Below are positions 27,300 to 52,429 of a stretch of 64,000 nt of DNA, one piece after another. The notes under the pieces are model-generated. The model had not been told where the DNA came from and ran no database searches. It saw nothing but the letters and a program-made list of their open reading frames with translations. The DNA comes from Granulicella sp. (GTDB lineage Bacteria; Acidobacteriota; Terriglobia; Terriglobales; Acidobacteriaceae): contig DAHWNL010000078.1 in NCBI GenBank assembly GCA_027339965.1, positions 96,001-160,000 of the forward strand. The letters run 5' to 3'. Made by a program: the position numbers and the translations under genes. Numbering within the stretch: the stretch's first letter is position 1; the number at the start of each line of letters is the position of its first letter.

Positions 27300-27302
27300 A
27301 AG

Positions 27303-30853: not shown

Positions 30854-31584
30854 TGAAAAGGACTCTATTGGCCGTTGTAGTGCTTCTGTCCACTATGGTC
30901 TCAGGTTGTAATCACAAGAGGGCTTTGCCGCCCGCACTGGCCGCCAAAGCGAATGGTACCGCCATCGTGGTGGTTAGTGGAGATAAGCAACTCGGGTCAA
31001 TCGGATCCCAGCTTCCCCAACCTCTCATCTTGCAGATCAATGACGACCAGGGAAATGCGGTGACTGGAGCCAACGTGCAACTGTACGGACCTCCCGGCGT
31101 CACCTTTACCCCGCAGCAAATTCTCACTGACGACAATGGGCAAGCGACCTTCAAGGTAACCATGGGTGGAATCAATGGCCGGTACGAACTTACCGCATCT
31201 TCTCAGGATGCGCACGGCAGGACATTCAGTCTCACGATTCCAGAGTTTGCGGCAGGTTACCAACAGGAGGTAGGTTACGAAGTCAATCAACAATACTGTT
31301 CGCGGTGCCACAACCCCGACTCAACTTCGGAGCAGGTTTCTAACTATGACAATCTCGCTGTCAAGCCGCACCGCTTTTCCGACGGATTGATCTACAACAA
31401 CATTTCAGAGACTGATTTGACGACCATCATCTCGCACGGAGGCGCTGCAATGAATCGTTCAGCACTGATGCCGCCCTACGGGTGGACGCTCAACAAGGCG
31501 GAGGTTCAGGGAGTGATTGCTTACATTCGGCTGGTTTCTGATCCGCCCTATGTTGCTCCAGGTGTCGTGTATCAGAAGCATTGA
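30850..31584 (+). CDS. Lipoprotein with Ig-like domain and monoheme cytochrome c
   Basis: Lipobox VSGC; Big-like segment (DDQGNAVTGANV...TDDNGQA); CSRCH plus distal LMPPY. Confidence 0.8.
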   Translation: MMKRTLLAVVVLLSTMVSGCNHKRALPPALAAKANGTAIVVVSGDKQLGSIGSQLPQPLILQINDDQGNAVTGANVQLYGPPGVTFTPQQILTDDNGQATFKVTMGGINGRYELTASSQDAHGRTFSLTIPEFAAGYQQEVGYEVNQQYCSRCHNPDSTSEQVSNYDNLAVKPHRFSDGLIYNNISETDLTTIISHGGAAMNRSALMPPYGWTLNKAEVQGVIAYIRLVSDPPYVAPGVVYQKH

Positions 31585-35533: not shown

Positions 35534-36911
35534 TGACCCGCCCCGCATGACTAAGCCAGAAGCGGCTGGAAAATCCGGCTTGCGTGGTTCGGTTCGGCCC
35601 GTGTTGACGGGCGGATTTGCAGATACTGTAGCTCAAGTGAGTGTCTCAAGTAACAGCGTTGAACCACTGTCGTTCTGCGCTGTGACAGCAGCCGTCGTCG
35701 TGCCATGGAAAAGTGGGAGGCGAGTAGCTGCTTCCACTTTTCCACGGCTGCAGATAGCCGCGAACTCCGCCGGTGTGCGGTCGTCCAGCGCAGAGTGCGG
35801 GCGCTGGTGGTTTGTAGTCGCGTCGCCAGAGGTGCAGCTTCCGGCGAGCGTCAGCCAGGTTCAAGGACACCTCCACGTTCAGGCACTCGTCGCGCAGCTT
35901 TCCGTTGAAGCTCTCGATGTAGTCGTTCTCTACCGGCCTGCCCGGGGGGATGAAGTTCAGATGCACACCGTTCCGATACGCCCAGTGGTCGAGCGCTTTA
36001 CTGGTAGATTCCGTTTCGTTGTCCACAGTGATCGACTCCGGCAGGCCGCGTTGCAGCAGCGCCTTATCCAACGCCGTTGCGACCTCCTCCCCGCTCAGTG
36101 TGTTGTCTGTCAGCAGCGTCACACACTCCCGCGTGTACTGGTCCACTACCGTCCGCACACGGATCCAACGCCCGTCCGGCAACCACTGCGCCACGAAGTC
36201 CATCGACCGCTTCTGGTCTGGCCGCAACGCCGATCCCTGCGCCACACGATGCCGCTGCGCGCGCTCCTTGCGCTTCTTCGTCCTCACGATCGGGCCCTCC
36301 TCGACGTACAGTCGGTAGATGCGCTTGGCGTTGACCTTCCAGCCTTCGCGCTTCAACAGCACGGTCAGCCGCCGGTAGCCGTAACGCACGCGGTTGCCGG
36401 CCAGCTCCCTCAGACGGATACGCAAGGCCTCCTGCCGGTCGCGGTGATGCTCGTAGCGCAGCGTCATCCGCTCGACTGAAATCAGCTGCGACACGCGCCT
36501 CTGGCTCATCCGGTGGACCTGCTGTGCCCACTCGGCCGGCTCGCGCCGCGCACGAGGCCTTACAGTTTTTTGCGACGATCTCCTGCGACACATGACGGTC
36601 CGGGTTCGGGTCCGCTACCAAACGCTTCGACTTCGCGTTCTCTTCACGCAACTGGAGCAGCTCCTGAAGCTCGTTCAGCCCCAACCCGGAAGACTTCTTC
36701 TTCCGCAAATAAAACGTCTGCTGGCTGATGCCGTGCTTCCGGCAAGCCTCGACCACCGTGTCGCCAGACGTGGTCTCCCGCAGCACCCGCAGAATCTCTT
36801 CCTCGCTGTGTCCACCCTTACCCGTACAGGTTCTCCTCTCTTGCTTCTCAGAGAACCACAACAGGCCAAATCCTCAACGTCAACTTGGCCTAGTTTTTGG
36901 GTTTTGGGTCA
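35534..36911 (-). mobile_element. Degenerate IS3-family element (orfA/orfB)
   Basis: TG...CA ends with imperfect IRs (TGACCCgccccgcatgACTAaGCCA vs TGACCCaaaacccaaaaACTAgGCCA); orfA HSEEEILRVLRE...CRKHGISQQTFY; orfB RYGYRRL, SMDFV, DQYTREC, IESFNGKLRDECLN; A6 tract at the orfA/orfB junction; decayed DN(G)xEF motif. Confidence 0.88.
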
Positions 36912-37070
36912 GATCGGACGTTTCCAATGGTGTCCGGACAATCTCCGGGCCAGGAGATCCGGCAAATCACCATGCATTCTAAGGTCTATCTAAATCTCCA
37001 TCTTTCGATGGAAGTAGGACGATAAACGACTGCCGTATAATTCAGTCTCTCCCAGAATGGAGCGGGCCTT

Positions 37071-37952
37071 GTGCACGCAAACCTCCAGGATGGCTTCGCC
37101 GATTCCCCGGATGCTTTAAAGGACGGGCAGCGGCAACGAACGATCATCCGGGTTCTCGGTATCGAAGTGGGTGGGGATGAGTTCGTCACCATGGCAGGGC
37201 CATGCTCGGTTGAAACCGAGTCCCGGCTCATGGCAACCGCTCATCATGTTCGCCGCTGCGGCGCGCGCATCCTTCGTGGCGGCGCGTTCAAGCCGCGCAG
37301 CTCCCCCTATTCCTTTCAAGGTCATGGTCTTCAGGCGCTCAGGACGCTCGCCCGCGCCCGAGCGGAGTTTGGACTGGCCATCGTCACCGAAGTCATGTCG
37401 GAAAGCGATGTCCCTTTGGTGGCTGAGTACGCTGACATACTGCAGATTGGCTCGCGCAGCATGGAAAATCTTCTCCTGCTCAAGGCTGCAGCGCAATCCG
37501 GGCGACCGATCCTTCTGAAGCGAGGCATGATGGCTACGGTTGCCGAGCTACTCTACGCGGCGCAGTTGATCCTGGAAGAGGGCAACCCCAACGTCATTCT
37601 CTGTGAACGAGGCATCCGCACCTTTGAAACATCGATGCGCAACACCTTCGATGCCGCGGCCATCGCATTGCTCAAGCAGATCTCGCACCTGCCCGTGATC
37701 GCCGACCCAAGCCACGCGGCCGGGCATCACGATCTGGTTCCCGCTTTGGCCCGCATTGCCGCGGCCGCGGGAGCGGACGGCCTGCTGGTTGAAGTGCACC
37801 CCGAGCCCGAGCAGGCGTGGAGCGATGGGGAACAATCCTTGGATTTTGCTGAATTCGAAGCCATGATGATTTCGCTGGACCCTCTTCTGGCGCTGCGCTC
37901 GACGGTTCCGGGCGCGCCCGTGGATGCAGGGTTCGTGGAGGTTGGTGGGTGA
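37071..37952 (+). CDS. aroF: 3-deoxy-7-phosphoheptulonate (DAHP) synthase, type I-beta, catalytic barrel only
   Basis: [39 protein letters not shown] and EVHP...SDG motifs. Confidence 0.88.
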
Positions 37953-39367
37953 GGGGTTCTTTCTTCTTGTTTTTAGCCGCTCTCAGTGCTTTTGCGCCTT
38001 CGCCCTCACGTGCCCTGCCGCCCCGCATAGTCCACCAGACGGAAGCCGATTTTCTTGTCACCGCTGCTCCCGTCTACGTCCCCCTGGCAGAGATGCACGG
38101 GCGGGAGCGATTCCCCCGCGGAGCACGGTTGCTGCTGGTCCACAACGGCAAGGCCGCGCCCCTCGTGACCGGCTTCGCAGATACCGCGGACCCCGATCTC
38201 TCCTTCGGTGGCCAGAGGGTGCTCTTTGCCGGCAAGCGCACCACCGCCGATCCTTGGCAGATCTGGGAGCTCAACCTCAAGAACGGCTCGTTGCGGAACG
38301 TCATCAGCACCGGAGTCGATGCCGAGCGACCGCTGTATCTGCCGGGCGGACGTATAGTCTGGGCGCAACGCACGGCCTCTGGATTCCGGATCGAGTCGGC
38401 TCCGGACGGCCATCCTCCCAAGGTACCGTTCCTGAACCCGACCGCCGGTCCCGGAGTGCTGCCCCTCACCTACATCCAGACCAACGCCTTTCCCACCACC
38501 ATCCTGGCCGACGGCCGCATTCTCTTCGAGTCCGGCTATCCGCTCGGAGAAGGCGCAGCCACTGACTTATTTGCGGTCTACGCTGATGGCTCGGGCGTGG
38601 AGGAACTCCGTCCCTATCAAGGCCGCTCCCGCTGGGGTGGCTCGCAACTGGCCTCCGGTGACGTGGTGTTCTCCCATGGAAGGTCGCTGGCGAGGCTCAC
38701 CTCCGCGCTGCTGCAGGAGGAGCCCATTGCCGCCCCCCAGGCCGCCTACGCCGGCACAATCGAGGAGACGCCTTCCAGCGAATGGTTGCTGAGTGCGCGC
38801 GCGACCGGCCAGACGCACTATGCAATTGATCTGTGGAAGCCCGGAACCGCTGCACTCCAGACCATCCTTTCAGAACGCGGCGAGGATCTTGTCCAGCCTG
38901 TCCTGCTGGCGCCTCGTACCCCGCCCAGACGATTCCCTTCAGACCTCCACCCTTGGAACTACGCCAATCTTCTGGCCCTCGACTCGCGCCTGTCCATGGA
39001 AGGCAATCTGAAATTGGCGCCCGCATCGGTCCGCCTGGAGAGCCAGGATCCGAATGGCCACATCCACAACAACGGAACCGCTCCGATCTATCCCGACGGC
39101 TCCTTCTTTGTGAAGGTTCCTGAAAACCTCCCGATTCGCTTCCTCCTCCTCGATAAAAATGGCGCCGTTCTGCGTCGCGAACGCGGGTGGTTCTGGAGCC
39201 GCGGCGGCGAACAGAGGATCTGCGTCGGATGCCATACGGGACCGGCACTCTCTCCTGAAAATCAAGTGCCTGAAGTGCTGCTGCACACCACTACCCCGAT
39301 GGACCTCACGCTTGACTCACCTCGCACACCCACGCGCACTGAGGTGCAGAAAGGTAATACGAGATGA
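37949..39367 (+). CDS. Exported hydrazine-synthase-alpha-like protein (TolB-like propeller plus HZS-alpha middle domain, one CxxCH)
   Basis: Signal peptide; DPDLSFGGQRVLFAG...WQIWE and PLYLPGGRIV propeller blades; DGSFFVKVP...PIRFLLLD...GEQRICVGCH middle-domain pattern. Confidence 0.72.
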   Translation: MRGSFFLFLAALSAFAPSPSRALPPRIVHQTEADFLVTAAPVYVPLAEMHGRERFPRGARLLLVHNGKAAPLVTGFADTADPDLSFGGQRVLFAGKRTTADPWQIWELNLKNGSLRNVISTGVDAERPLYLPGGRIVWAQRTASGFRIESAPDGHPPKVPFLNPTAGPGVLPLTYIQTNAFPTTILADGRILFESGYPLGEGAATDLFAVYADGSGVEELRPYQGRSRWGGSQLASGDVVFSHGRSLARLTSALLQEEPIAAPQAAYAGTIEETPSSEWLLSARATGQTHYAIDLWKPGTAALQTILSERGEDLVQPVLLAPRTPPRRFPSDLHPWNYANLLALDSRLSMEGNLKLAPASVRLESQDPNGHIHNNGTAPIYPDGSFFVKVPENLPIRFLLLDKNGAVLRRERGWFWSRGGEQRICVGCHTGPALSPENQVPEVLLHTTTPMDLTLDSPRTPTRTEVQKGNTR

Positions 39368-41130
39368 TCCTTCGCTCCCTGCTTCTTTTCTCTGCCGCCG
39401 TCTCGATCGCCGCAGCACAAAAAGCAGCGCCGCCGGCAAGATCCACCACGGATACCGCAAAAACAGCGGGACAACCTACCATCCGCTTTGAAGATGCTAC
39501 TGGGCAGTCCGGAATCCACTTCGTTCACAGCTTCGGATCCGCCAGGCTCAGTTCGCTGCTCGAAGGCACCGGAGCCGGCTGCGTATGGTTCGACTACAAC
39601 CACTCCGGCCGCAAGTCGCTCTTCGTCGTCAACGGAAGCACCCTTGACCCAGGCATGACGCACAACCCTCTGCCAACAAAGCCTGACCCGGCTCCGCATG
39701 CGCATCTGTACCGTAACGACGGGAACGGCCATTTTACTGATGTGACCGCTCAATCCGGCCTCGATCCCGATCTGTACGGTGACGCCGTCACCGTCGCTGA
39801 CTACGACAACGACGGCTATGACGACCTGCTCGTCACCGGCTACGGCAAAGTGATCCTCTACCACAACAACGGCAACGGCACGTTTACCGACGTTACCCGG
39901 CAAAGCGGCATCAAGGTTACCGGCTGGGCTATCGGCTCCACATGGCTGGACTACGACCGCAATGGCTGCGTCGATCTCTTCGTCGGCCGTTACGTCAAGT
40001 TCGACCCCGAATACCACTCGTATTATGCGGCCGATAACTATCCCGGGCCGCTCAACTATGCCGGCGAGTCCAACATGCTGTTTCACAACAACTGCGACGG
40101 CACGTTTACCGACGTCTCGGATAAGTCGGGAATCAGCGCCTTCGTGGGCCGCACCATGGGAGTGACCGCTGCCGACTTCGACAACGATGGCTGGGACGAT
40201 ATCTACGTCACAAATGACGATACGCCCAACTTTCTTTTCCACAACATGCACAATGGCACCTTCCAGGAGATTGCCAACAACGCTGGCGCAGCCTACGGAG
40301 AAGATGGCGAAGCCACTTCGTCCATGGGTCCCGTCGCAGCCGACTTCTGGAACCGCGGATTGTTAGACCTCTGGGTAACCGATGGGAGTTACAACCGCTT
40401 TCTCAAAAACCTGGACGCTCCGCAACTCGGGTCTTCCTCTGCCCATTCGGATTGGCATGGCTTCCAGGATGTTACCGCGGCAAGCGCCATCTCCCAGGTC
40501 GAAGCGCAATACGTCAGTTGGGGCACCGGCGTCTACGACTTTGACAACGACGGGCTGCTGGACATCCTGGTCTTTCACGGTGGCCTGACCCACATGATTC
40601 CAATGGAGCACACCCTCTTCCGCAGCCTGGGCAACGGCAAGTTTGAGGATGCCTCCCGCCAGGCAGGCCCCGTCCTGAGCGTACGTACTGTAGCCCGCGG
40701 AGCCTGCTTTGCCGACTACCGGAACGATGGAAAGGTTGACGCCTACGTGGTCAATCTCGGGTCGGAGGGAACGCTGCTTCACAACGTCTCTACCAACACC
40801 GGCCATTGGGTTGAAATCAAGCTCGTCGGCGCCATGAGAAAGGGCGATGCGGGTATACCCGTCGGAGATCCTGGAGCACGGAGCAACCGCGACGGCATCG
40901 GCGCTCGCATCCAGGTCGTCACCGGCGATGTGAGGCGCTCTGCGGAGCGAGTAGCCAGTTCCGGCTATCTCTCCCAGAATGAAGGACGCGTCCACTTCGG
41001 CCTGGGTACCGCTACGACCATTGACAAGCTGGTCGTCCGTTGGCCCAGCGGGATTGTGCAGACGCTCACGAACCAGCCGGCGGATCGCGTGCTCACGATA
41101 GCGGAACCGGGAAGAGGGGAGGCGCAATGA
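39364..41130 (+). CDS. CRTAC1/ASPIC-UnbV family FG-GAP repeat protein
   Basis: Repeated DYDNDG/DFDNDG Ca-binding blades; SNRDGIGARI, GYLSQ and VHFGLG...VRWPSG (UnbV domain). Confidence 0.9.
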   Translation: MILRSLLLFSAAVSIAAAQKAAPPARSTTDTAKTAGQPTIRFEDATGQSGIHFVHSFGSARLSSLLEGTGAGCVWFDYNHSGRKSLFVVNGSTLDPGMTHNPLPTKPDPAPHAHLYRNDGNGHFTDVTAQSGLDPDLYGDAVTVADYDNDGYDDLLVTGYGKVILYHNNGNGTFTDVTRQSGIKVTGWAIGSTWLDYDRNGCVDLFVGRYVKFDPEYHSYYAADNYPGPLNYAGESNMLFHNNCDGTFTDVSDKSGISAFVGRTMGVTAADFDNDGWDDIYVTNDDTPNFLFHNMHNGTFQEIANNAGAAYGEDGEATSSMGPVAADFWNRGLLDLWVTDGSYNRFLKNLDAPQLGSSSAHSDWHGFQDVTAASAISQVEAQYVSWGTGVYDFDNDGLLDILVFHGGLTHMIPMEHTLFRSLGNGKFEDASRQAGPVLSVRTVARGACFADYRNDGKVDAYVVNLGSEGTLLHNVSTNTGHWVEIKLVGAMRKGDAGIPVGDPGARSNRDGIGARIQVVTGDVRRSAERVASSGYLSQNEGRVHFGLGTATTIDKLVVRWPSGIVQTLTNQPADRVLTIAEPGRGEAQ

Positions 41131-43178
41131 ATCGTCTCGGACGAGGCCGACGCCAGCTACCATCCCATCCGGTGGCAGCTCTCTCTGCAGCACTTGCGGC
41201 GCTGCTCCTTGTTCTGCCGTGGCCCGGCCGCACCGTCCGCGCCGCCACTGCTTCTCCAGCCAGCCCGCTGCTGGGCTACGCCTCTCCGGTGGAGTTGCTG
41301 TTTTCGCCCGACGCAACGCGGCTTTATGTCCTCTGCCAGGATAGCGGCGAGGTGCGCGTGCTGAACGCTACAACCTACGCCCCCACCGCAACCATCGACG
41401 TGGGTCATGTGCCACGCGGATTCTTTCTCTCTCCCCATGGGAACAGGCTCTTCGTAACCAACTCCTGGGACGACACCCTTTCGGTCATCGACACCCGCGC
41501 ACTGAAAGTGGTGGCTACATGGCATGTCGGAATGGAGCCATCGAGCGTCATTGAGGGGCCTGCAGGCAAGCATCTCTATATCGCCAATCGCATCAGTAAC
41601 GACGTTGCTGTGCTGGACGCCCATACCGGCAGTGAGATCAAGCGACTTGCAGCCGGACGCGGAGCAAGCTACATGGCTCTCTCCCCCGATGGGCGGCGCA
41701 TCTACGTCTCTCATGTCTACCCCAACCCTACTCCTTACCGCACCCCGCCGGAGTCGGAGTTGACGGTGATTGACACGGCTACAGCAGAAGTGGTCCATCG
41801 TCTTCCTCTGCCCAGCATCGCCGGCGCCTTTCATATCGCGTTTACCCCCAACGGCAGCCTGGGCGTACTGGCGGAGATGCACCCCAAGAACATGGTTCCG
41901 GTCACCCAGGTCGAGCATGGCTGGGCCTTTGAAGATACACTCGAACTCTTTGGCTCCGCTGTACCGCATCAAGCAGTCGAAGTGCCGCTGGATGATCTGG
42001 ACAGCTATGCGGTGCGCCCCTTCGGCGTCGCCATCACGCCGGATGGTTCACGCCTTTACGTGAGCTGCGGTGGCTCGGACATCGTTACCGTCATCAACCT
42101 GTGGAACCTGCGCCGTTATCTTCACACCCACAGCGGGCCAATCGCGTATGATCTTGCCGCCAGCGCCCATTACGTCGTAGCCAGAATCTCCGTGGGCCAC
42201 GATCCACGCGGTGAGGTCGTCAGCGCCGATGGCCGTCGGTTGCTGGTAGCGAACCGGCTGGATGACACCATCAGCGTGATCGACACCGCCACCGGCAAGG
42301 TGGTCACTACCATCCCTCTGCCCCCATCCAGGCATCTGTGGGCAGAACGCTTCGGCCTGCAGATGTTCGCTGAGATGACCAACCCCTCTCCGGGGATGAG
42401 ACGTTGCCCAGCCTGCCATATCGACGAGCGCCATCGCAATGCTCAGAAGATGAACCTGACGCCACAGCAACTGCTGGCCGCCCTGCGGCGTGGCCAGCAG
42501 GCCTTCTATAGCGCGAACTACTCCTTTCATGGCGGCATGGGCTGTGCCAACTGCCACGTCGATACCACCATGGATGCGCTGTTGTGGAACTTTGAACCGG
42601 CTGGCCTGGGCCGGAACATCGTAGAAAACATGCTTCTGGAGGACATCCGCAACACCGCGCCGTACGATTGGACGGGCGTCAACCCCAACCTGCCCACCCA
42701 GTGCGGACCTCGTACCGAGTTATTCATCTGGCGCTCCCAGAACTACAACGCCCGCACCCTCGCTGATACAGCCGCCTATCTGAACAGCCTTCCGTCCCGG
42801 CCCAACCGCTGGCGTCTGCCCAACGGTCAATTCAGCCCCGCGCAGGAGCGCGGCCGGCAGATCTTTGATCGCACCGTAGACGACTTCGGCAAGCCCATCC
42901 CGCTGACCAACCGCTGCAACTTCTGTCACAGCGGTCCGCTGGGCACGGATAGCAGGAAGTTCGATGTAGGAACCAAAGGACCGTACGATACTACGGGGTT
43001 GTTCGTCACAGCGCAGTTGACTAACGTCGCACTCACCGCACCTTACCTGCATGACGGCTCTGCAGCAACCCTCGAAGAGATATGGACCACCCACAACCCG
43101 CATGACCAGCACGGTCGCACCAATGACCTGACCAAGAACCAGCTCAACGACCTGATCGACTACCTGCGGACCCGATGA
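41127..43178 (+). CDS. YVTN beta-propeller fused to a CcP/MauG-type cytochrome c (hydrazine synthase beta-gamma fusion-like), 3 CxxCH
   Basis: LFVTNSWDDTLSVID-type repeats; CPACH, CANCH and CNFCH; TAPYLHDGSAATLEE and DQHGRT C-terminus; start ATG 41127 overlaps the upstream stop. Confidence 0.8.
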   Translation: MNRLGRGRRQLPSHPVAALSAALAALLLVLPWPGRTVRAATASPASPLLGYASPVELLFSPDATRLYVLCQDSGEVRVLNATTYAPTATIDVGHVPRGFFLSPHGNRLFVTNSWDDTLSVIDTRALKVVATWHVGMEPSSVIEGPAGKHLYIANRISNDVAVLDAHTGSEIKRLAAGRGASYMALSPDGRRIYVSHVYPNPTPYRTPPESELTVIDTATAEVVHRLPLPSIAGAFHIAFTPNGSLGVLAEMHPKNMVPVTQVEHGWAFEDTLELFGSAVPHQAVEVPLDDLDSYAVRPFGVAITPDGSRLYVSCGGSDIVTVINLWNLRRYLHTHSGPIAYDLAASAHYVVARISVGHDPRGEVVSADGRRLLVANRLDDTISVIDTATGKVVTTIPLPPSRHLWAERFGLQMFAEMTNPSPGMRRCPACHIDERHRNAQKMNLTPQQLLAALRRGQQAFYSANYSFHGGMGCANCHVDTTMDALLWNFEPAGLGRNIVENMLLEDIRNTAPYDWTGVNPNLPTQCGPRTELFIWRSQNYNARTLADTAAYLNSLPSRPNRWRLPNGQFSPAQERGRQIFDRTVDDFGKPIPLTNRCNFCHSGPLGTDSRKFDVGTKGPYDTTGLFVTAQLTNVALTAPYLHDGSAATLEEIWTTHNPHDQHGRTNDLTKNQLNDLIDYLRTR

Positions 43179-43185
43179 AAGGACA

Positions 43186-44283
43186 GTGAAGATGAGAGGG
43201 GTGCTCAACAAGCTTTGCCTGGGCGTGGCGTTTGCGGCCTCTGCGGCCTCAGCGTCTGCCGTGGCGCCAAAGCCGCCCGAAGTGCCACACTACCGCTTTG
43301 TCAACTACACCGTCGCGAACGGCCTGCCCAACAATCACGTCTACTCGGTTCTGGTGGATGGAAGCCGCGTCTGGGCTGGTACGGACGATGGCCTCGGCCT
43401 CTATGAAAATGGCAGGTGGAGAACTTTTACCACCAGGGATGGCCTGGCGCAGCAAGCCGTGCTCTCGCTGGCGCTCGACAAGCAGACCGGCGACGTGTGG
43501 GCCGGAACGATGGGTGGGCTGAATCGCATCTCCGGCGGCCGCATCATCGCTACCTACACACAATTGAACTCAGGACTCAGCAACGATATCGTGTACGGTG
43601 TATCCGTGGAAGGCAGGAATGTGTGGGTTGCCACAGCCGCCGGAGCCTGCCGGCTGAACCTGGATACGAACCAATGGTCGATCTATACCGACGAAAATAC
43701 CCCCATGAAGGAGATCTGGGTCTACGGCGTCTCAGCCGCATCGGACAAAGTCTACTTCGCTATCTGGGGAAGCGGTCTGCTCGAATATAACCAGCAAACC
43801 AGGCTCTGGGATATCTACGATGACCCCGACCACGAAACCGATCTTGTGCTCTTCAAAAACCAGGGGCTCATCCACGACATCGTATCTTCCGTCAGTTATG
43901 TTGATAAGACCGTCTGGGTCTCCACTTACTTCGGTGCCAGCCGCTACAACGGACGGTATTGGCATAACTTCCTCACCAAAGATAGCGGCCTGCCCTCGAA
44001 CTTCATCAACTACCTGAAGGCAGCAGACGCTAATCATGCGTGGTTCTGCACTGACCAGGGGCTGGCGTTCTATGACGGAGTCAGCTGGGCCGTCTACACG
44101 CCATCGCTCGCCACCGGCAAGCCGGAGATGTGGATGCGCGACGCCCAGGCTCATATCACCCACATTCCCGTCACCACCGCACCCGCCAGCAATTACTGCC
44201 TCGGTATCGATTTCCAGGGCCGCGATATCTGGGTCGCAACCGCCGGCGGACTAAGCCACGGAATCTTCCAACCGCAACCATAA
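43186..44283 (+). CDS. Exported beta-propeller protein (two-component-regulator-propeller-type repeats)
   Basis: Signal peptide; repeats GLPNNHVYS / VWAGTDDGL / GLSNDIVY / VWVATAAG. Confidence 0.75.
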   Translation: MKMRGVLNKLCLGVAFAASAASASAVAPKPPEVPHYRFVNYTVANGLPNNHVYSVLVDGSRVWAGTDDGLGLYENGRWRTFTTRDGLAQQAVLSLALDKQTGDVWAGTMGGLNRISGGRIIATYTQLNSGLSNDIVYGVSVEGRNVWVATAAGACRLNLDTNQWSIYTDENTPMKEIWVYGVSAASDKVYFAIWGSGLLEYNQQTRLWDIYDDPDHETDLVLFKNQGLIHDIVSSVSYVDKTVWVSTYFGASRYNGRYWHNFLTKDSGLPSNFINYLKAADANHAWFCTDQGLAFYDGVSWAVYTPSLATGKPEMWMRDAQAHITHIPVTTAPASNYCLGIDFQGRDIWVATAGGLSHGIFQPQP

Positions 44284-44295
44284 GGAGGTATCACT

Positions 44296-44796
44296 ATGAG
44301 CCCATTGACTGAACTTCTCGAGAGCATTGCCCACGCACCGGTCAGGAAACACGCCATTACCAACTACGGCGTACTGAATGAAGCCTACTGCTATGACAAG
44401 CCGAGTTCCTTTTCACGCGGCATGAGAATCGATCTCGGCCAGGTATCTATCCTGCTCATCTCCGGCACGGCTTCCATTGACGAGCACGGCAAGAGCGTCC
44501 ACATCGGTGACTTCCGCGCGCAGATGCGGCGCACGCTTTCCAATATCACCGGCTTGTTGGCCAGTGAAGGCTGCACCTGGCACGATATCGTACGGACCAC
44601 CTGCTACCTGCGAGACATCGAGCGCGATTACGAGGCATTCAACGAAGAACGTACAGCGTTTTACAAACAACTTGCACTCGACCCTCTGCCCGCTTCGACC
44701 GGCATTCAGGCAATCCTCTGCCGGCCGGAGCTGCTGATCGAAATCGAGGCCATCGCCATGTTCCGCAACGTTCAGACGGCCACCGCCAGGGAGTAG
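44296..44796 (+). CDS. Rid/YjgF-family protein resembling FkbO/Hyg5-type chorismatase domains
   Basis: AYCY, SFSRG, ISGTASI, PASTG and LCRPELLIEIEA; lacks the RidA PAR Arg; TAAGGAGG RBS. Confidence 0.7.
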   Translation: MSPLTELLESIAHAPVRKHAITNYGVLNEAYCYDKPSSFSRGMRIDLGQVSILLISGTASIDEHGKSVHIGDFRAQMRRTLSNITGLLASEGCTWHDIVRTTCYLRDIERDYEAFNEERTAFYKQLALDPLPASTGIQAILCRPELLIEIEAIAMFRNVQTATARE

Positions 44797-44801
44797 CCGC
44801 G

Positions 44802-46964
44802 ATGGTACAGAGATGGTTCGAGCGTTCTCCCTGTTACCGGGTACTCCGGGGAGAGCGAGTCGGCGCGTTTTCCGTTGGAAAAACCCATGCTCCTGTCGAT
44901 GCCCCGCGTTACCCCTGCCGGGGAGTCGCTCCAGCGGCCGCGGCCTGCCTTTGCCTGGCAGGCGTTACGCTTGCTTCTCGGGCTCAGCAGGCGCATCCGT
45001 CTCCGGCTGTGCCTCCTGCTCCACCGGCTATTTCCCACGCAACGGACTCCTGGTGCTCCTGTGGCGCTCATCCACCCGGCCCGGAACCGCTTTGGACTTC
45101 CAGGCCCTACGCCAATGTTCCACCGGACATGAAGCCCTACGCCAGGTTCGCCAAACCGTACTATCACTACTACACCCAGCCGACCATCTGGAACGGGCCG
45201 GGGCGCGATACACCCGCTCCCGCAAATCTCACCGAGGTGCGCATAGGTTTCGTCGGCCCCATCTCCCCGACCGATCCTGATTACACCATGGGTATGCGCA
45301 TGTTGCATGGAGTGCAGTTGGCCGTGGAAGAGGCAAACGCCCGTGGCAGCTACGGAGGCAAACCTTTCCGCCTGATGCTGCACGACGACTACAACAACTG
45401 GCAGGCAGCGGCGGTCGCCGGCCAGGCTCGTCCTACCAATCCTGCCATCTGGGGCGCTGGCTTGGATCCAGCCGTCAAGTGCATCTACGACGACAAGGAC
45501 TGGGCCATCTTCGGCTCCATCAACTCAGAGACCACCCACGAGATGTTGCGCCTCTCCCTCAAAGCCGAAATCCCCATCGTCAACTCGGCTTCCACAGACC
45601 CCACCATCCCGGAGACCTCCGTCCCCTGGTACTTCACTGATCTCCAGGATGACCGCGTCCAGGACTACACGCTGGCGCGCCGCATCTACACCGAACTGGG
45701 CCTCCAGCGGGTGGCTATCCTGCGCGTCAACAACCGCTATGGCCGCATGGGCGTCTTCAAATTTCGCGATGTCTCGCGCCGACTCGGCCATCCCGTAGTC
45801 ATCGAACAGACATTCGCGGCTGGAACCACGGACTTCACGCAGGAACTGAGAAGCATCCAGGACTCGCGCGCCGACGCCATTCTGCTTTGGAGCGATGAAG
45901 CCCCCGCGGCAATGATCCTGCGGCAGATGCGCGCCATGGGGATGAAGCAGCGCGTCTTCGGCTCATATCGCACGCTGGGCCCCACCTTGCTGGCTCAGGC
46001 AGGTCCGGCGGCAGAGGGGTTTGAAGCTGCGTTTCCCTATGATCCCAACCGCAACAACCCGCGGTGGCTCGCCTTCAATCGCCGCTTCGAAGCCCGCTTC
46101 CACGAACCGCCCGATTCGCTTGACTCCCTGGCCTACGATGCCATGAACATCCTGCTCGACGCCATCTGCAGGGCGGGCCTGAATCGTGTGCGCATTCAGG
46201 ACGCGCTAGACAACGTGCGGCAGTACGACGGAGTGACGGGGCACATGGTCTTCGATCCTAACCAGAAGAACGTAGCTCCCATGTACCTGGGCACGGTGCA
46301 CCATGGCGCCATCACCTACCGGCTCGCCCCACTTTCGGAGCTACCCCTTGCCGGGCAGTCCACAGGCGCCCAGGCTCAGGCCAGCCAGAAGCCTGCTCTC
46401 CATCCCGCGGCAGTGCCCATTCCCTATGCACGCGTCGGTGAGGATGGCATCCATTATTTCGGGCCGACACAGCCCAGCATACCGCTCGGCCCGGTGCGCG
46501 CCATACTCATCGGGCCCCAGGCTCAAAAACTGGCACAGTCGCCCGCGATCAAGGCGGAGTTGGCTGCTGCCGCGCAAAAGGGGCGCGCCTGGATGCTGCT
46601 GCCTGTGGACAGCGACCAGCAGTGGGGCGCTGCATCCACCCAGTTGGTTCGTGACTTGTGGAACGAACACCCTCTGGCAATCATTGCTTTCGGCAGCAAA
46701 GCCGGTCATCTGTCGGAACAGTTGGCGCTGAAGACCTTTGTCCCGGTTGTGGCCGTCTCCGACGACCGGACTCTGACCTCCGCGGCCGTGCCATGGATCT
46801 TCCGCCTCCCGACGGGAACCTCCGCGGTGGCCGCGCTGCATCTCCTCGCAGACGCTGAGGCTCGCGGAGGGCCCAATCCCGAACGGGTCAGGAATGTGCT
46901 GGCCTCGGGAGATCTGATCTCAGGATTCGCATTTCTTCCCAGCGGAGATCTGCGCAAGCCATAA
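44802..46964 (+). CDS. Periplasmic solute-binding protein (branched-chain amino acid/type 1 PBP fold) with an extra partial PBP domain
   Basis: VRIGFVGP...GVQLAVEEANARG, AIFGSINS and LAYDAMNILLDAI...GVTGHMVFD; start uncertain. Confidence 0.78.
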   Translation: MVQRWFERSPCYRVLRGERVGAFSVGKTHAPVDAPRYPCRGVAPAAAACLCLAGVTLASRAQQAHPSPAVPPAPPAISHATDSWCSCGAHPPGPEPLWTSRPYANVPPDMKPYARFAKPYYHYYTQPTIWNGPGRDTPAPANLTEVRIGFVGPISPTDPDYTMGMRMLHGVQLAVEEANARGSYGGKPFRLMLHDDYNNWQAAAVAGQARPTNPAIWGAGLDPAVKCIYDDKDWAIFGSINSETTHEMLRLSLKAEIPIVNSASTDPTIPETSVPWYFTDLQDDRVQDYTLARRIYTELGLQRVAILRVNNRYGRMGVFKFRDVSRRLGHPVVIEQTFAAGTTDFTQELRSIQDSRADAILLWSDEAPAAMILRQMRAMGMKQRVFGSYRTLGPTLLAQAGPAAEGFEAAFPYDPNRNNPRWLAFNRRFEARFHEPPDSLDSLAYDAMNILLDAICRAGLNRVRIQDALDNVRQYDGVTGHMVFDPNQKNVAPMYLGTVHHGAITYRLAPLSELPLAGQSTGAQAQASQKPALHPAAVPIPYARVGEDGIHYFGPTQPSIPLGPVRAILIGPQAQKLAQSPAIKAELAAAAQKGRAWMLLPVDSDQQWGAASTQLVRDLWNEHPLAIIAFGSKAGHLSEQLALKTFVPVVAVSDDRTLTSAAVPWIFRLPTGTSAVAALHLLADAEARGGPNPERVRNVLASGDLISGFAFLPSGDLRKP

Positions 46965-47133
46965 GTCCCCGCTTCGCCTACGTAGCAAAAGAACCACTGG
47001 CTGGAGCCAGTCCGGAGAAAGTGGCCGCATAGGGAAGACAACCTCCTTCCTCCCGGGGACGGTCTCCAGCGGTCGGGTACCTCTGTACCACTGGTCGTGC
47101 TGGCAGATTGGCGTTTGCAGCGCCGGCAAACGC

Positions 47134-48263
47134 GTGAGCGCTCAACGAAGCCCAGGGTCAGAGCGCGGCGAGTTCGGCCATGGTCGTGTCGTGGCGTAGC
47201 TTCCACTGGTCGGGGAGCCACAGGTCGAGGTCGGCGTCGGGCGTGACCGGCAGGTTGGTAAGCAGTTGGGTGAAGTAGATCTGCGGGTCGACCGCGTGGC
47301 GGCGGCAGGTCGAGGTCAGGCTGGAATAAGATGGCTGCCGTACGTCCGCCGCGCGGGTTGCCGACGAAGAGGCTGTTCTTCCGGTTTAGAACCACGCGCT
47401 TCATCTCGCACTCGCTGACACGATTGTCCAGCGGTATGGCGGGGTCGAAGAGGAAAACAGTCATCTCGGGCCATTGCCGGAGGGCGCAGCCGACAGCGTC
47501 GGCCATGGGATGCTTGGGCAGCAGGTACTCTTTCCAGCCAAGCAGCTTCTCGCGCGGCGCCGAGTGCTCCCCGCGCAGCGCCAGTCTGGCCGCAGGCTCC
47601 AGATCTTTTGCCTTGCGTTCGACCGCGTAGAGCGCGCGCACGTACTCGACCGCGGCAGCGGCGATCTCGGGAGCGGACTTTTCGGCTTCGACGAATCTTC
47701 TTTTCAGATGCGCCCAGCAGCCGGCGTGCGTGATGCCGTTGCGGGCGACAACTCCGTTGTAGCCGTCGTAACCATCGGAGAGCGCCAACTCGGCAGTCCC
47801 ATCATCCCCACCCTTGCTCTCCCACGGCGACCGGCATCGCTTCCAGCACCCGAATCACCGCGCAAAGTTGATCGCCGTCAAATCCAGGCCCCACCAGAAG
47901 GCTGCGCCCACCGCAAAGGGGAACTTCGATGGTAGACCTGTTCGAGCCCAACGAACTGCCCTCGGTCGGCTCCGCTTGAAGAGCCGGTGACTGGCGACTG
48001 GGTTTTTTCTCGCGAATGCCCCAACGACCGCAACCTCAACAAAACCGTCTGCCGCTCCATCCCTCAACCTCGGCCGCCAGGCGTAAAACCGCCCAACGCG
48101 CAGATCGCGTGCTCGGCAAAACGCCGCCACGCTCGCGCCGCTCATCTCCTGATCTCGAACCTGCTCCCGCCAAACCACCTACTCCGTCTTATCATGACGC
48201 CGCATGGGTCGAGTCTTACGCACCTCGACATCCCGCACAAGATGGCCTTCGTTGAGCGCTCAC
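47134..48263 (-). mobile_element. Internally deleted IS66-family element
   Basis: Perfect 17-bp terminal IRs GTGAGCGCTCAACGAAG (47134-47150) and CTTCGTTGAGCGCTCAC (48247-48263); tnpC fragment (SDGYDGY, HAGCWAHLKRRF, DNRVSE, RKNSLF) and tnpA fragment (SGASVAAFCRA...FYAWR); only 1130 bp. Confidence 0.88.
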
Positions 48264-48286: not shown

Positions 48287-49303
48287 TCAAGTCAGTACCG
48301 TCACCGGACCGCGACCCCTCCAGTTCGGGAAGGGAGACTGGCTGGCTCGCCGCAGTCGTCCTATCATCTCCCGCAGGCGATGGCGTCTGGCAAGCAGCGT
48401 AACTACAAGCAACTCGAGTCGATGGAGATCCGCCCCATGCCATTCTGGCGGCATGGTTTGGGCCAAGCTCCACAGAATGTCGGGGTCAAACTCTTCCATC
48501 CGGCTGAGCCATGGTTCGAAGCTGTTCCACCCGGTCACCCCAGCATAGACTCTATTGTCTGTGCACCTTCCTAGGAGTGGGGTGTCCTGAAACTCCCAAC
48601 GGCTGCCGCTGAAGCAGGACCCCTGATCGATGAACAGAACACGATACTCGGGCTCTTGCGCATTGCGTAGAAAGATGGCTTGGCGACGGTCGGTGTTGCC
48701 GGTCCATTGGTCGAAGGCGAGCATGGGGGCGAACTCACCTAGATTGCATACATTGCGGAGCCACTCGCCAGGCAGGAGATCAAAGGCTTGCTGATGCAGA
48801 ACCCCAGCGCCGAAACGGCTTCCGAACTGCAAGCCGCTAGCGCATCTCTCCCAACGCTGGTCTCCATAATGAATGATGAGTTGCGGACTGCGTTCGATCA
48901 GCCATTCACTGACCTGGATCATTCCCGTCCTCGGCACGGACAGCCCCACCACCTCTGCCATGCGGTTAGCCAGAAACTCATTGGCCGGTACCCGGGGATG
49001 CTGGGGATTATTCTTGAACTTAACCACCCACACTGCGTGGTCTTCACCCAAGATCAACTTGCTCTGCGAACCGCCTCGCAGGGAGGAGATCGCGTGCATC
49101 GCCCTTATCGGCGTCTCTTGGAAAGGCCCCATCTGTCTGGCCGGCTGTCCGGTCAGCGTAGAAACGGCTTCTGAAGCCCCATGCGCTGTCTCCGCCAAGG
49201 GGTTCAGCGATGCTTTGCTCTCCATCCGTCGGGAGGCGCACAATAAGGGTTCTACAGACGCGTCTACTGTCACACTCTGCCACGCGCTCGCTCCCATAAG
49301 CAC
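48287..49303 (-). CDS. HipA-like Ser/Thr kinase (HipA_2 type)
   Basis: RGGSQ, VVKF, NEFLA, FDQWTGNTDRR and FIDQG kinase motifs; the true start is probably downstream of 49303. Confidence 0.75.
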   Translation of the reverse strand: MLMGASAWQSVTVDASVEPLLCASRRMESKASLNPLAETAHGASEAVSTLTGQPARQMGPFQETPIRAMHAISSLRGGSQSKLILGEDHAVWVVKFKNNPQHPRVPANEFLANRMAEVVGLSVPRTGMIQVSEWLIERSPQLIIHYGDQRWERCASGLQFGSRFGAGVLHQQAFDLLPGEWLRNVCNLGEFAPMLAFDQWTGNTDRRQAIFLRNAQEPEYRVLFIDQGSCFSGSRWEFQDTPLLGRCTDNRVYAGVTGWNSFEPWLSRMEEFDPDILWSLAQTMPPEWHGADLHRLELLVVTLLARRHRLREMIGRLRRASQSPFPNWRGRGPVTVLT

Positions 49304-49976
49304 ACACCTCTAGGTGTTAATCGGAGAAAGAAGGTGTATCATGAGATGTGTCGCAATTTGGAGCATCCTTCGCCCAGATTCCATCGCAGTCCGCCGCCCG
49401 ATACCCTCCGCGCTTCCAGTCTGATCCCAGCCAGCGCATGAAGGCCCTCCAGTGGGTTGTCATTCTTCCAACCCATGCTCTTGTTCGCTAAACCGAGCTC
49501 GGGCCTCCACTCTGCCGTCCACAGGTTCGTGGCGACTGTTGGTCGGATCCAACCGCCCCGCTCTAATGCCGGCTTGTTCGGAAATTCCCAGTTCTTTCCT
49601 GGCTCCTTATGCTTGTCAGCGCCAGTTCTTGCCTGAAAGCGCTCTCCAAGTGCGTACCTGGATCTTCACTTCTCTGAGCCTGCCAACAGCCTCGCAACCG
49701 ATCCCCGGCAACAATTCTTCCTCGCCCTCGGAGCCGGCAACACGGAACCAGAGTCCTCTGCGGAGATGAGCGGTCTACTCTCTCTATCCCACTCAGGACT
49801 GGTCTCAGTCACCACCCTTTCATCCGCGGAGATCCAGGATCTTCGTCTTGTGATGAAGCTCACATACGATCGCCCTTTTCGTGCCGCCCAATAAGGCAAC
49901 ATCGAATTGTCCTCCCGAGATTCACCCTCTAGAGGGCCGGTTCGCTGCAATTGCCGGGCGAAAGCGACATCGCTTG

Positions 49977-50450
49977 ATGAAAAACTTCCGGGATTCGGAA
50001 CATCTGCTCAGATTCGCCTTTCTGTTTGCGATGGTGCTCGCCCTCTTTCTAATCGTGCGCCACTTCGTCGTGCCCAAGAGTTTCGGAGAATACGGCCACT
50101 ATCGCGGGGCTGCCATCGGCGAGACCGCCGCACGGCCGATTCACTTCGCCGGACAATCCGCCTGCGCAACCTGCCACACGGACATCGCGGCAACCAAACA
50201 GGCCGGCATGCACGCTGGCGTTCACTGCGAAGCTTGCCACGGGCCTCTGGCCAAGCATGCCGCCGATCCGGCATCCGTTCAGCCGCCCAAACTTGACACC
50301 GCAGTTTTGTGCGTCCGGTGCCATGCAGCCAGCGCCGCCAAGCCGAAGAACTTCCCCCAGGTAGCCGCGGCAGAGCACTCCGGCGGATTGGTCTGTGAGA
50401 CCTGCCACCACCCCCACAGCCCTGCTATTCAAAGTGAAGGCGCCAAATGA
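49977..50450 (+). CDS. Membrane-anchored tetraheme cytochrome c
   Basis: TM helix; CATCH, CEACH, CVRCH and CETCH. Confidence 0.88.
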   Translation: MKNFRDSEHLLRFAFLFAMVLALFLIVRHFVVPKSFGEYGHYRGAAIGETAARPIHFAGQSACATCHTDIAATKQAGMHAGVHCEACHGPLAKHAADPASVQPPKLDTAVLCVRCHAASAAKPKNFPQVAAAEHSGGLVCETCHHPHSPAIQSEGAK

Positions 50451-51181
50451 ATCTCAGTCGACGTCAATTTCTCGTGCTGGTGCCAGCCACGGCTGTCGCA
50501 TGGCAGTATGTGCTTGCCGGCACCCCCCGGGATGCCCCTAACTACCAGCTCGCCGACCACTGGTGGGGCATGTTGCTTGATATCACCAAGTGCATCGGCT
50601 GCGGAAACTGCGTCCGCGCCTGCCAGGCAGAGAACGATGTCCCTGACGGATACTTTCGCACCTGGGTCGAACGCTACCTCAGAACCGATTGGAATCTGAC
50701 CACCCCGGAGGTCATCTCTCCCGACGGCGGCAAAGAAGGCTTCCCGACCGCCGAAGAGGTCAAGGATGGCATGTACTTCTTCGTTCCCAAGATGTGCAAC
50801 CACTGCGCCGACTCTCCCTGTACCCAGGTCTGTCCCGTAGGAGCCACCTTCATCACCCCGGACGGCGTCGTCCTCATCGACCAGACCTACTGCCTTGGCT
50901 GCGCCTACTGCGTGCAGGCCTGCCCCTATGGGTGCCGCTATATTCACCCTACAAGACACGTCGCCGACAAGTGCACGCTCTGCTATCACCGCATCACCAA
51001 GGGCCTTACCACGGCCTGCTGTGAGAACTGCCCCACCGGGGCGCGTCAACTGGTCGATCTCAAAAACCCCAATGATCCCATCCATGCCTTTTTGAAGACG
51101 CATGACGTGCATGTCCTCAAGCCGGAGATGGCAACGGGAGCAAAGGCCTTTTACAACGGTTTGGATGGCTCGGTGCGATAA
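50447..51181 (+). CDS. Tat-exported 4x[4Fe-4S] ferredoxin (NrfC/PsrB/DsrO-like)
   Basis: SRRQFL; CIGCGNCVRAC, CNHCADSPCTQVCP, CLGCAYCVQACP and KCTLC...CCENCP. Confidence 0.9.
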   Translation: MNLSRRQFLVLVPATAVAWQYVLAGTPRDAPNYQLADHWWGMLLDITKCIGCGNCVRACQAENDVPDGYFRTWVERYLRTDWNLTTPEVISPDGGKEGFPTAEEVKDGMYFFVPKMCNHCADSPCTQVCPVGATFITPDGVVLIDQTYCLGCAYCVQACPYGCRYIHPTRHVADKCTLCYHRITKGLTTACCENCPTGARQLVDLKNPNDPIHAFLKTHDVHVLKPEMATGAKAFYNGLDGSVR

Positions 51182-51199
51182 AAGGAGGAACGGACCATT

Positions 51200-52390: not shown

Positions 52391-52429
52391 CTGCGCCCGA
52401 CTGAGACCATCCCGGGTGAAGGGGGGACC

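Follow-up and report, generated by a model that had tools for sequence, protein, structure and literature searches.

To our knowledge, hydrazine synthase (HZS), the enzyme of anaerobic ammonium-oxidizing (anammox) bacteria, was long believed to be without relatives. The present analysis concerns a seven-gene operon in a 64,000-nucleotide stretch of a Granulicella sp. genome (assembly GCA_027339965.1, contig DAHWNL010000078.1, positions 96,001 to 160,000; the whole stretch is called the window below), where an earlier note had pointed out the genes for an HzsA-like (alpha-like) haem protein and for a fused HzsBC-like (beta-gamma) haem protein. There is very little doubt that this cluster is an HZS homologue of an already published kind. 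Distant homologues, about 25-30% identical to HZS, were described by Hagglund et al. (2025; PMC12758564) as co-located genes for alpha and a fused beta-gamma protein, falling into four clades. According to that paper, a gene of the FG-GAP/CRTAC1 type lies between the alpha and beta-gamma genes in clades I and II, genes for binding proteins follow downstream, and a short alpha without haem alphaII is found in clades II and III. The homologues have a gap at Tyr591/Ser590, Trp for gammaHis144 and a loop Glu that is not conserved, and they were concluded to be unable to make hydrazine. The supplement contains hundreds of Acidobacteriota rows and 73 mentions of Acidobacteriaceae, and its Table S5 gives alpha and beta-gamma lengths of 490 and 658 amino acids (aa) for Granulicella sp. 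L46 and of 470 and 635 aa for Occallatibacter savannae. Dalcin Martins et al. (2023; PMC10732223) had proposed HZS-like enzymes as a broader family with other substrates. Thus the novelty implied by the earlier note falls away, as the same alpha, FG-GAP and beta-gamma clusters, Acidobacteriaceae included, are present in PMC12758564 and were foreshadowed in PMC10732223. By its features, rather than by tree labels, the window cluster would be of the clade II type. Among publications on hydrazine synthase-like proteins, judged by titles and abstract openings, no functional study of the homologues was found.

The likeness of both haem proteins to HZS, as measured on their amino-acid sequences, is far beyond chance. 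When beta-gamma was compared with the PDB as a single sequence, 5c2v_B was matched over nearly the whole chain (E 8.4e-33) and 5c2v_C with E 1.3e-15, and only the repeat-rich YVTN surface-layer protein 1l0q outscored 5c2v_B. A family profile built from 36 sequences placed 5c2v_B first (E 1.6e-76, over 9-350 of 352 residues) and matched 5c2v_C with E 1.4e-49; the next chains of the cytochrome c peroxidase (CcP) type were 6e1c (2.2e-15) and 1iqc (2.9e-13). For the alpha-like protein, 5c2v_A was the only match, both with the single sequence (E 6.4e-8) and with a profile of 35 family sequences (E 9.2e-32), and the Pfam model HZS_alpha (PF18582) was passed with 56.5 bits at a gathering cut-off of 26.6. 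The same chain came out on top when an AlphaFold2 model of the alpha-like protein (for its confidence, see below) was compared with known structures by Foldseek (E 8.4e-13; next LRP6, 2.5e-7) and by VIA-align (Z 16.9, 327 aligned residues, rmsd 17.4), where 5c2v_A alone spanned both the propeller and the middle domain, and TolB propellers came next (Z 15.0, residues 24-322 of the model). In the ESM Atlas, the alpha-like protein and the Rid-like protein of the operon met only their own Acidobacteriota clusters, with no structure for either. The proteins are thus specific homologues of HZS alpha and of HZS beta plus gamma and not generic YVTN or CcP proteins, as argued by the gap between 5c2v_C and the next CcP-type chain and by the lone match of alpha.

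Several details of the earlier note agree with this. The haem motifs that it quoted are exact, namely CVGCH at 39221-39235 in the alpha-like gene and CANCH and CNFCH in the beta-gamma gene (Table 1), and the export that it assumed for both haem proteins is in line with a hydrophobic, signal-peptide-like N-terminus read on each sequence. The Kuenenia HZS segments that it named also align: PKNWLPVCEAENG, LPLDDLNNY and PYG of 5c2v_B face HPKNMVPVTQVEHGW, VPLDDLDSY and PFG of the window protein, and VCGRDPGFVFRSENF and DMHGRT of 5c2v_C face QCGPRTELFIWRSQNY and DQHGRT.

The operon very probably makes no hydrazine. For comparison, 401 Planctomycetota genomes were searched, of which 15 were above the cut-off, and the resulting anammox reference locus, L026, reproduces the published residue numbering. 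On the NCBIfam equivalog models NF052339-NF052342 (cut-offs: alpha 800, beta 560, gamma 625, fused BC 1250 bits) this anammox operon scores 1546 bits for alpha, 719 for beta and 725 for gamma; the window proteins score 40 for alpha, 136 for beta (NF052340), 63.9 for gamma (NF052341) and 149.5 for fused BC (NF052342), all below the cut-offs. In a residue map of four anammox operons against the window and 35 (alpha) or 36 (beta-gamma) family rows, alphaTyr591, Tyr in all four anammox rows, is Ala in the window and never Tyr in the family (Glu in 21 rows, Ala in 14); alphaCys303, Cys in the same four rows, is Gln in the window and His in 30 of the 35 family rows; and gammaAsp168, Asp in 4/4 anammox rows, is Thr in the window and Asp in 0/36. 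At gammaHis144 the window protein has Trp, as does most of the family. The domain with the bis-His haem alphaII (His772), present in anammox, is absent here: the alpha-like protein has one CXXCH and ends about 40 residues past CVGCH. The haem-binding Cys and His residues are kept in the window proteins, the His of the alpha CXXCH included, and the tunnel loop of the beta propeller is present and conserved (PKNxxPxTQVxxGW), with the Mg-binding betaGlu253 (Glu in three anammox rows, Ile in one) replaced by Gln in the window and in 25/36 family rows. The equivalent of gammaCys165, Cys in 4/4 anammox rows, is also kept, as Cys526, and a third covalent link to the haem is predicted there from the retained residue.

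Quick maximum-likelihood trees, of 40 rows for the gamma domain and 40 for the beta domain, were midpoint-rooted only, because the own genome gave no generic CcP as an outgroup. In both, the anammox sequences form one long-branched clade (SH-aLRT 100) away from the window protein; in the gamma tree this clade groups with six other family members and not with the 30-row group holding the window protein, and in the beta tree a distance of 3.5 substitutions per site separates the latter from the Kuenenia protein. The HAO/HDH family PF13447 has 0 matches in the own genome, which is 98.86% complete, against 13 in the anammox genome G433. Since the NCBIfam cut-offs are missed, key residues and the alphaII domain are lost and no HAO/HDH cytochrome is present in the genome, the system is not a hydrazine synthase. 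That it might still be a cryptic, N-N bond-forming one in an acidobacterium is hardly credible and is largely refuted: all three HZS subunit folds do occur in one operon, with the beta loop and gammaCys165 kept, but the equivalog cut-offs are missed widely, alphaTyr591, alphaCys303, gammaHis144, gammaAsp168 and the haem alphaII domain are lost, an HAO/HDH-type cytochrome is missing, the anammox clade stands apart in both trees, and PMC12758564 concludes likewise for the homologues it treats. The claim that the complex is built from exactly the parts of HZS has to be given up as well, as it lacks the haem alphaII domain and has an extra haem in beta-gamma. The residue tests are in line with the other suggestion of the earlier note, a different chemistry in a non-anammox bacterium; nothing was found that points specifically to N-O or N-N chemistry, which it had also considered.

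The retained Cys526 bears, moreover, on a nitrogen-oxide enzyme without N-N coupling, in which the gammaI-like haem would reduce nitric oxide (NO) or nitrite to hydroxylamine or ammonia, or would detoxify hydroxylamine, like the proposed first half-reaction of HZS, with the alpha haem and the binding proteins as accessories. We consider this improbable. In its favour, HZS is the nearest relative to have been characterised, and NO binds to its reduced gammaI haem according to PMC12607021; the Cys that makes the third covalent bond to that haem in HZS is retained in the window protein and in 24/36 family rows; and other clades have multihaem c554-type extensions (locus L010; clade descriptions in PMC12758564), suited to multi-electron reductions. 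On the other side, the gammaI pocket has lost gammaHis144 and gammaAsp168, none of the 27 loci examined has a linked nitrogen-cycle gene, and such a reaction needs neither the conserved propellers nor a binding protein of the amino-acid type.

The partnership of the two haem proteins is conserved far beyond the window. A second complete seven-gene operon (contig C81:1081-10895, locus L018) occurs in the same binned genome, with 78-88% protein and about 80% DNA identity; both copies are known from this one bin (98.86% complete, contamination 2.39%) and may lie in one cell. The DNA homology between the copies runs from 36992, 79 nt upstream of the first gene, through the last stop codon and ends at 46967. 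The C81 copy has the neighbours usual in its relatives, an amidase gene upstream and an amine-oxidase-type gene downstream. All seven genes were found in each of ten true related loci retrieved by the beta-gamma search; eight of these are Acidobacteriaceae-like (54-80% identity), and the other two, one from Phycisphaeraceae and one a distant locus of Acidobacteriota, are about 35-36% identical and have a different gene order. With 28% identity over residues 458-614 and E 1e-4, the Actinomycetes locus L011 was judged to be no true relative and was left out of the counts. The nearest loci belong to Acidobacteriaceae and Granulicella metagenome-assembled genomes, as expected from the "apparent acidobacterium" of the earlier note. 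The upstream amidase, conserved in the Acidobacteriaceae loci, was not counted as part of the system, as it has no signal peptide and is absent at the window's copy.

A wider sample of 17 loci from 16 Acidobacteriota genomes, the own genome excluded, was chosen by the beta-gamma match only and counted within up to 20 kb per locus, several loci ending at contig edges. It contains the alpha-like gene 17 times, the Reg_prop propeller and the binding protein 17 times each, the FG-GAP gene 16 times, the Rid gene 12 times and the DAHP synthase gene 8 times. Thus alpha and beta-gamma occur together in 10/10 related loci and in 17/17 loci picked by beta-gamma alone, and these counts make the five exported proteins the core of the system and the two cytoplasmic enzymes frequent but facultative members. 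The flanks of the 17 loci held no recurring extra partner, with amidase, asparaginase, peptidase, OPT transporter and multihaem cytochrome genes in one or two loci each. The distribution is patchy: a beta-gamma match was obtained in 17 of 301 sampled Acidobacteriota genomes and in two of 22 other genomes of the same family, with none in the one other genome of the same genus. A tblastn search of a plasmid collection with beta-gamma gave generic propeller matches below 33% identity only and no close relative.

Towards the CcP/MauG group the likeness of the gamma-like domain is marginal in its Pfam score. PF03150 (di-haem CcP/MauG) gives 28.5 bits for the whole beta-gamma protein against a cut-off of 25.6, yet no single stretch passes, TIGR04039 gives 37.5 bits, and the Trp that lies between the two haems in that group is present as Trp515. 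In the beta-gamma alignment C597, C600 and H601 of the second motif are invariant, as are H642 and H662, and the second haem of the gamma domain is probably bis-His ligated, judging from this conservation. In the alpha-like alignment the His of CXXCH is the only invariant His or Met, so that a five-coordinate, reactive state of the alpha haem is probable. The insertion that carries the third motif of beta-gamma, CPACH, is missing in the forms of about 635 aa and has the consensus CxxCHID..HR....M; among the 120 best homologues, three CXXCH motifs are found in 59 and two in 61.

When the own genome was searched in six frames with PF03150 (E <= 0.001), no canonical di-haem peroxidase or MauG appeared, and the two HzsBC-like proteins are therefore its only detected CcP-like domains. 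This absence, together with the near-invariance of the CcP/MauG-typical Trp (33/36), would suit a system that is mainly a periplasmic peroxidase, whose CcP-like domain would reduce H2O2 with electrons from the respiratory chain while the regulator-less DAHP synthase and the Rid protein serve as stress-time stand-ins for cytoplasmic enzymes. The DAHP synthases of E. coli are sensitive to peroxide. A peroxidase has no need, however, of the alpha haem protein, the two further propellers and the binding protein, which are kept in 16-17 of the 17 loci, and the patchy distribution (17/301 Acidobacteriota, 2/22 of the family) is odd for a housekeeping defence, so that we regard this role as unlikely. 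Very unlikely is a MauG/MbnH-like maturase, in which beta-gamma would oxidize an aromatic residue of an operon partner (alpha, FG-GAP, Reg_prop or binding protein) into a protein-derived cofactor. Proteins of the MbnH and MauG types are the next-best CcP-type relatives (6e1c at 2.2e-15, and the TIGR04039 match), the Trp is kept and partner proteins are always there; but HZS-gamma is far closer (1.4e-49), a fused propeller with an HZS-type tunnel loop suggests a small diffusing substrate, and the dedicated DAHP synthase would be left unexplained by a maturase.

The operon consists of seven closely spaced genes (Table 1). The overlaps quoted by the earlier note are exact (GTGA at 37949, joining the DAHP synthase stop and the alpha-like start, ATGA at 39364 and ATGA at 41127) and make up the first three gene junctions; the adjacency and extent of its two-haem-gene operon do not stand, as the 588-aa FG-GAP gene lies between the two haem genes and the operon comprises all seven. 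Signal-peptide-like N-termini were read on five of the products and on neither the DAHP synthase nor the Rid protein.

Table 1. Positions of the operon, its genes, haem sites and flanking elements in the window
Feature	Position	Strand	Description
IS3-family element	35646..36861	-	HTH_Tnp_1 and rve open reading frames; directly upstream of operon
Palindrome, 18 nt, CTCCATCTTTCGATGGAA	36996..37013	+	75 nt upstream of DAHP synthase start; candidate operator
Operon	37071-46964	+	DAHP synthase, HzsA-like, FG-GAP/ASPIC, HzsBC-like, Reg_prop propeller, Rid-like, LivK-type binding protein
DAHP synthase	37071..37952	+	293 aa; type I-beta barrel only, no regulatory domain, no signal peptide; PF00793 240 bits
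HzsA-like protein	37949..39367	+	472 aa; signal peptide, TolB-like beta-propeller, HZS_alpha middle domain, one c-haem site
FG-GAP x5 + UnbV_ASPIC (CRTAC1-type) propeller protein	39364..41130	+	588 aa; exported; FG-GAP_3 141.2 bits, UnbV_ASPIC 81.2 bits
HzsBC-like protein	41127..43178	+	683 aa; signal peptide, 7-bladed YVTN propeller, extra haem site, CcP/MauG-like di-haem domain
HZS-beta-type propeller loop	41880-41924	+	within the gene 41127..43178
Third haem motif CPACH (residue 427)	42405-42419	+	in insertion of about 33 aa between propeller and gamma domain; missed in the earlier note
CANCH	42543..42557	+	haem gammaI site (gammaCys102/Cys105/His106); conserved in 36/36 family rows
Trp515 (42669-42671)	42669..42704	+	in place of gammaHis144; Trp in 33/36 family rows, His in 4/4 anammox rows
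Cys526 (42702-42704)	42669..42704	+	gammaCys165 equivalent; Cys in 24/36 diverse family rows and 114/120 close homologues
CNFCH	42915..42929	+	haem gammaII site
Reg_prop-type beta-propeller protein	43186..44283	+	365 aa; exported; PF07494 43.2 bits
Rid (YjgF) protein	44296..44796	+	166 aa; cytoplasmic, single-domain; LLISGTAS segment; PF01042 65.6 bits
LivK-type (Peripla_BP_6) solute-binding protein	44802..46964	+	PF13458 165.1 bits; true start uncertain
IS66-family transposase remnant	46970..47788	-	PF03050, profile positions 131-283 of 284 only; directly downstream of operon

Among the other exported products, the FG-GAP/ASPIC protein has CRTAC1 (9etn, E 1.2e-12) as its sole sequence match in the PDB, and a literature search on CRTAC1 and ASPIC gave no functional lead. 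The nearest PDB chain of the Reg_prop protein is 4a2l (E 5.1e-26), the sensor propeller of a Bacteroides hybrid two-component system. The C-terminal extension of the binding protein, residues 505-720, has no Pfam match. The operon holds no ABC permease or ATPase, and since the LivK-type protein is always present without a transporter in the operon, we read it as a substrate carrier.

The cytoplasmic pair may be concerned with an aromatic acid. The DAHP synthase passes the type I-beta models NF006421 (388.9 bits, cut-off 335) and TIGR01361 (352.1 bits, cut-off 267.75). Four PF00793 matches are present in the own genome: the two cluster copies, a copy on contig C54 and one on C28. The C54 enzyme carries the FXD regulatory domain PF18152 (55 bits), whereas the cluster copies are without any; the distant C28 match (32% identity) is probably a KDO8P synthase. 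The Rid-like protein scores 47.2 bits on the RidA model TIGR00004, below the cut-off of 106.25. The carboxylate-binding Arg conserved in RidA imine/enamine deaminases, Arg105 of E. coli TdcF according to the account in PMC4433059, is missing: in one pairwise alignment PSRTT of PA5083 (9bjv) faces PASTG, with Ser for Arg. A group of 219 longer relatives was found, many of them triple-Rid proteins of about 400 aa with 37-47% identity. Seven of the longer relatives were scanned, and marginal FkbO_Hyg5-like_N matches (25-28 bits, cut-off 27) appeared in three and weak TIGR04444 chorismatase matches (39-59 bits, cut-off 325) in four. One relative, P0435 (961 aa), is not among these four; it is a triple-Rid chorismatase-like module fused to a domain of the benzoate-CoA ligase family (TIGR02262, 624 bits, cut-off 375), and its third Rid repeat is 42% identical to the window protein, SSFSRG and LLISGTAS being common to both. 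This fusion serves as a functional pointer for the whole group of Rid-fold proteins. Two apparent fusions of Rid with DAHP synthase, P0398 and P0476, contain part of the synthase only and are maybe gene-calling artefacts. That the pair would make a benzoate-type acid from chorismate is supported, not shown.

The explanation that we prefer can now be put together. In the periplasm, alpha and beta-gamma would form a complex resembling HZS alpha-beta-gamma, its two open haem sites connected via the propeller loop. The gamma-like domain would act as a di-haem unit of the CcP/MauG type, the Trp between its haems being kept where HZS has His, and electrons or peroxide would enter via haem gammaII and the extra haem. 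A second step might take place at the ordinary His-ligated alpha haem, where no conserved sixth ligand is visible. The substrate would be a small carboxylate, amino-acid-like or aromatic, delivered by the transporter-less binding protein, and cells that have both the DAHP synthase and the Rid-like enzyme could supply a chorismate-derived acid themselves. Such CcP/MauG-type oxidative chemistry on an organic acid is advanced tentatively and is possible at best. Doubtful, too, is a self-contained system, in which the feedback-free DAHP synthase and the chorismatase-like Rid protein would make a hydroxybenzoate-type acid, the LivK-type protein would capture it in the periplasm, and the HZS-like two-haem enzyme would use it as substrate or redox mediator. 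As a whole, a blend of four parts that range from the nearly certain homology to the tentative chemistry, the explanation appears somewhat more probable than not.

A number of observations weigh against this explanation. The alpha and beta-gamma complex, which we hold to be reasonably probable, is predicted from homology and synteny, and the AlphaFold2 model of the alpha-like protein is of low confidence (mean pLDDT 58.7, pTM 0.54). The gammaI site is not simply CcP-like, because gammaCys165, a speciality of HZS, is kept. Relatives occur in strict anaerobes, as PMC12758564 states, and peroxide is therefore an unlikely oxidant there. For the aromatic acid in particular, the chorismatase model TIGR04444 gives the Rid-like protein 32.7 bits at a cut-off of 325, with higher scores on RidA/RutC models; the PDB chains nearest to the binding protein are branched-chain amino-acid binding proteins (4gnr, E 7.1e-21) and not aromatic-acid binders; and the operon has no exporter. 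Finally, the DAHP synthase is found in 8/17 and the Rid protein in 12/17 of the wider loci, so the supply of an aromatic acid is not obligatory or is encoded elsewhere in those genomes.

Upstream of the operon a candidate control region is conserved. All 11 Acidobacteriaceae-type loci (the window, C81, L001-L007, L009 and L030) share a 7-4-7 palindrome, CTCCAyC-N4-GrTGGAG, at 71-75 nt upstream of the first gene. Sequence changes occur symmetrically in its two arms, as in CTCAACC..GGTTGAG of L009. Downstream of it come a TATAAT-like box and a conserved CCCAGAnTGGAG leader. By this pattern the palindrome is probably the operator of the operon. Rfam had no match over 36800-47200 (E <= 1), and a sigma-70 consensus scan of 36850-47300 returned 0 promoter-like sites where 2.2 were expected, and terminator-like matches that were unconvincing. 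A search upstream of the operon for the FNR box TTGAT-N4-ATCAA, with up to two mismatches, met only CRP-type TGTGA..TCAC sites, in L001 and L002. CRP-type boxes, TGTGA-N6-TCAC(A), stand about 100-115 nt before the DAHP synthase start in L001, L002 and L004, upstream of the palindrome, and the box of L004 is perfect; the window's copy has none, its upstream DNA being replaced by the IS3 element. A similar, half-conserved palindrome, ATCAACCTTTCGATGGAG, occurs at C81:29824-29841, flanked by an FG-GAP/ASPIC paralogue (27741-29690, minus strand, 35% identical) on one side and an open reading frame of 1055 aa on the other, and may point to a shared regulon.

The window's copy is framed by insertion sequence (IS) elements. 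DNA nearly identical to it has 17 holders in six studies, one of them possibly the source, from mine drainage, sediment, wastewater and mine-tailings metagenomes; among the sequencing runs holding such DNA no RNA run is listed. Contigs of runs from other studies span both junctions between the operon and the IS elements, the IS66 side being covered by runs X2 and X9, and therefore the IS-flanked arrangement is not a one-off misassembly. Contigs of three runs of other studies (X2, X9 and X10) skip 168 nt within the IS3 element (window 36052-36221), hence the copy in the window has a stretch that is absent from the same locus elsewhere. Just past the IS66 remnant lies a gene for a HipA-like kinase (48287-49303, minus strand). 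The operon with its IS flanks sits between two respiratory modules, at 26808-31584 and 49881-54181; one is a Rieske, cytochrome b and multihaem cytochrome c set, and the other a multihaem cytochrome, 4Fe-4S and NrfD set resembling alternative complex III, followed by an open reading frame of 583 aa without a Pfam match. A dispersed repeat of about 115 nt (for example G000:C37:27833-27948) has dozens of copies genome-wide at 80-97% identity, with none seen inside the window.

Operons of HZS homologues are most likely what hydrazine synthase evolved from. If the self-contained acid system were true, the ancestor of hydrazine synthase would have worked on organic acids and not on nitrogen oxides. 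The locus adds to the published picture a tri-haem beta-gamma variant, a genome with two diverged copies, of which one has IS flanks, the conserved palindrome, counts of core against facultative partners, and a gene fusion tying the Rid-like enzyme to benzoate-type acids. Moreover, since such genes match hzs models as well as the Pfam family HZS_alpha, surveys of soil and mine-drainage metagenomes can wrongly count them as anammox markers. The material of PMC12758564 includes cultured Acidobacteriaceae with the same type of cluster, so the function is within reach of experiment.

Compared with the chorismatases FkbO, Hyg5 and XanB2 (TIGR04444, PF21168), the Rid-like protein shares the Rid fold and the linkage to a DAHP synthase, whereas it is one Rid domain of 166 aa and the chorismatases are triple-Rid proteins of about 340 aa with an N-terminal FkbO_Hyg5-like domain. 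With the di-haem CcP, MauG and MbnH proteins (PF03150; 1iqc, 6e1c, 3rn0) the gamma-like domain has in common two c-haems, a two-domain fold and a conserved Trp in between; unlike them, it is fused to a propeller, has an extra Cys beside the first haem and is much closer to HZS-gamma. The HZS of Kuenenia stuttgartiensis (PDB 5C2V) is made of the same folds, a propeller with a haem middle domain, a 7-bladed propeller with the loop PKN..P....G and a CcP-like di-haem protein, with the extra Cys beside haem gammaI and all parts exported and encoded in one operon. The window system differs from it in its reversed gene order, the fusion of beta and gamma, the extra haem, and an alpha haem with an ordinary His ligand, where HZS has the proximal Tyr591 and a zinc site of His587 and Cys303.

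The Phycisphaerae UBA1845, as portrayed in PMC10732223, belongs to another phylum, and possible novel anammox bacteria were considered there, which the residue and genome tests oppose here; it resembles the window in having, outside Brocadiales, an hzsA-like gene directly upstream of a fused hzsBC-like gene. The closest correspondence is with clade II of PMC12758564. Its beta-gamma protein is said in that description to be without an additional haem motif, while the window protein and 59 of its 120 closest homologues have one extra CXXCH; gammaCys165 is mentioned in the clade descriptions for clade I only, yet the Cys is kept in the window protein; and the clade II text makes no mention of the DAHP synthase, Rid-like and Reg_prop propeller genes found in the window operon. 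In common with that clade, the window has the order of alpha, FG-GAP/CRTAC1, fused beta-gamma and binding protein, a short alpha with one CXXCH and no C-terminal part, Trp at gammaHis144, a loop Glu that is not conserved and no alphaTyr591.

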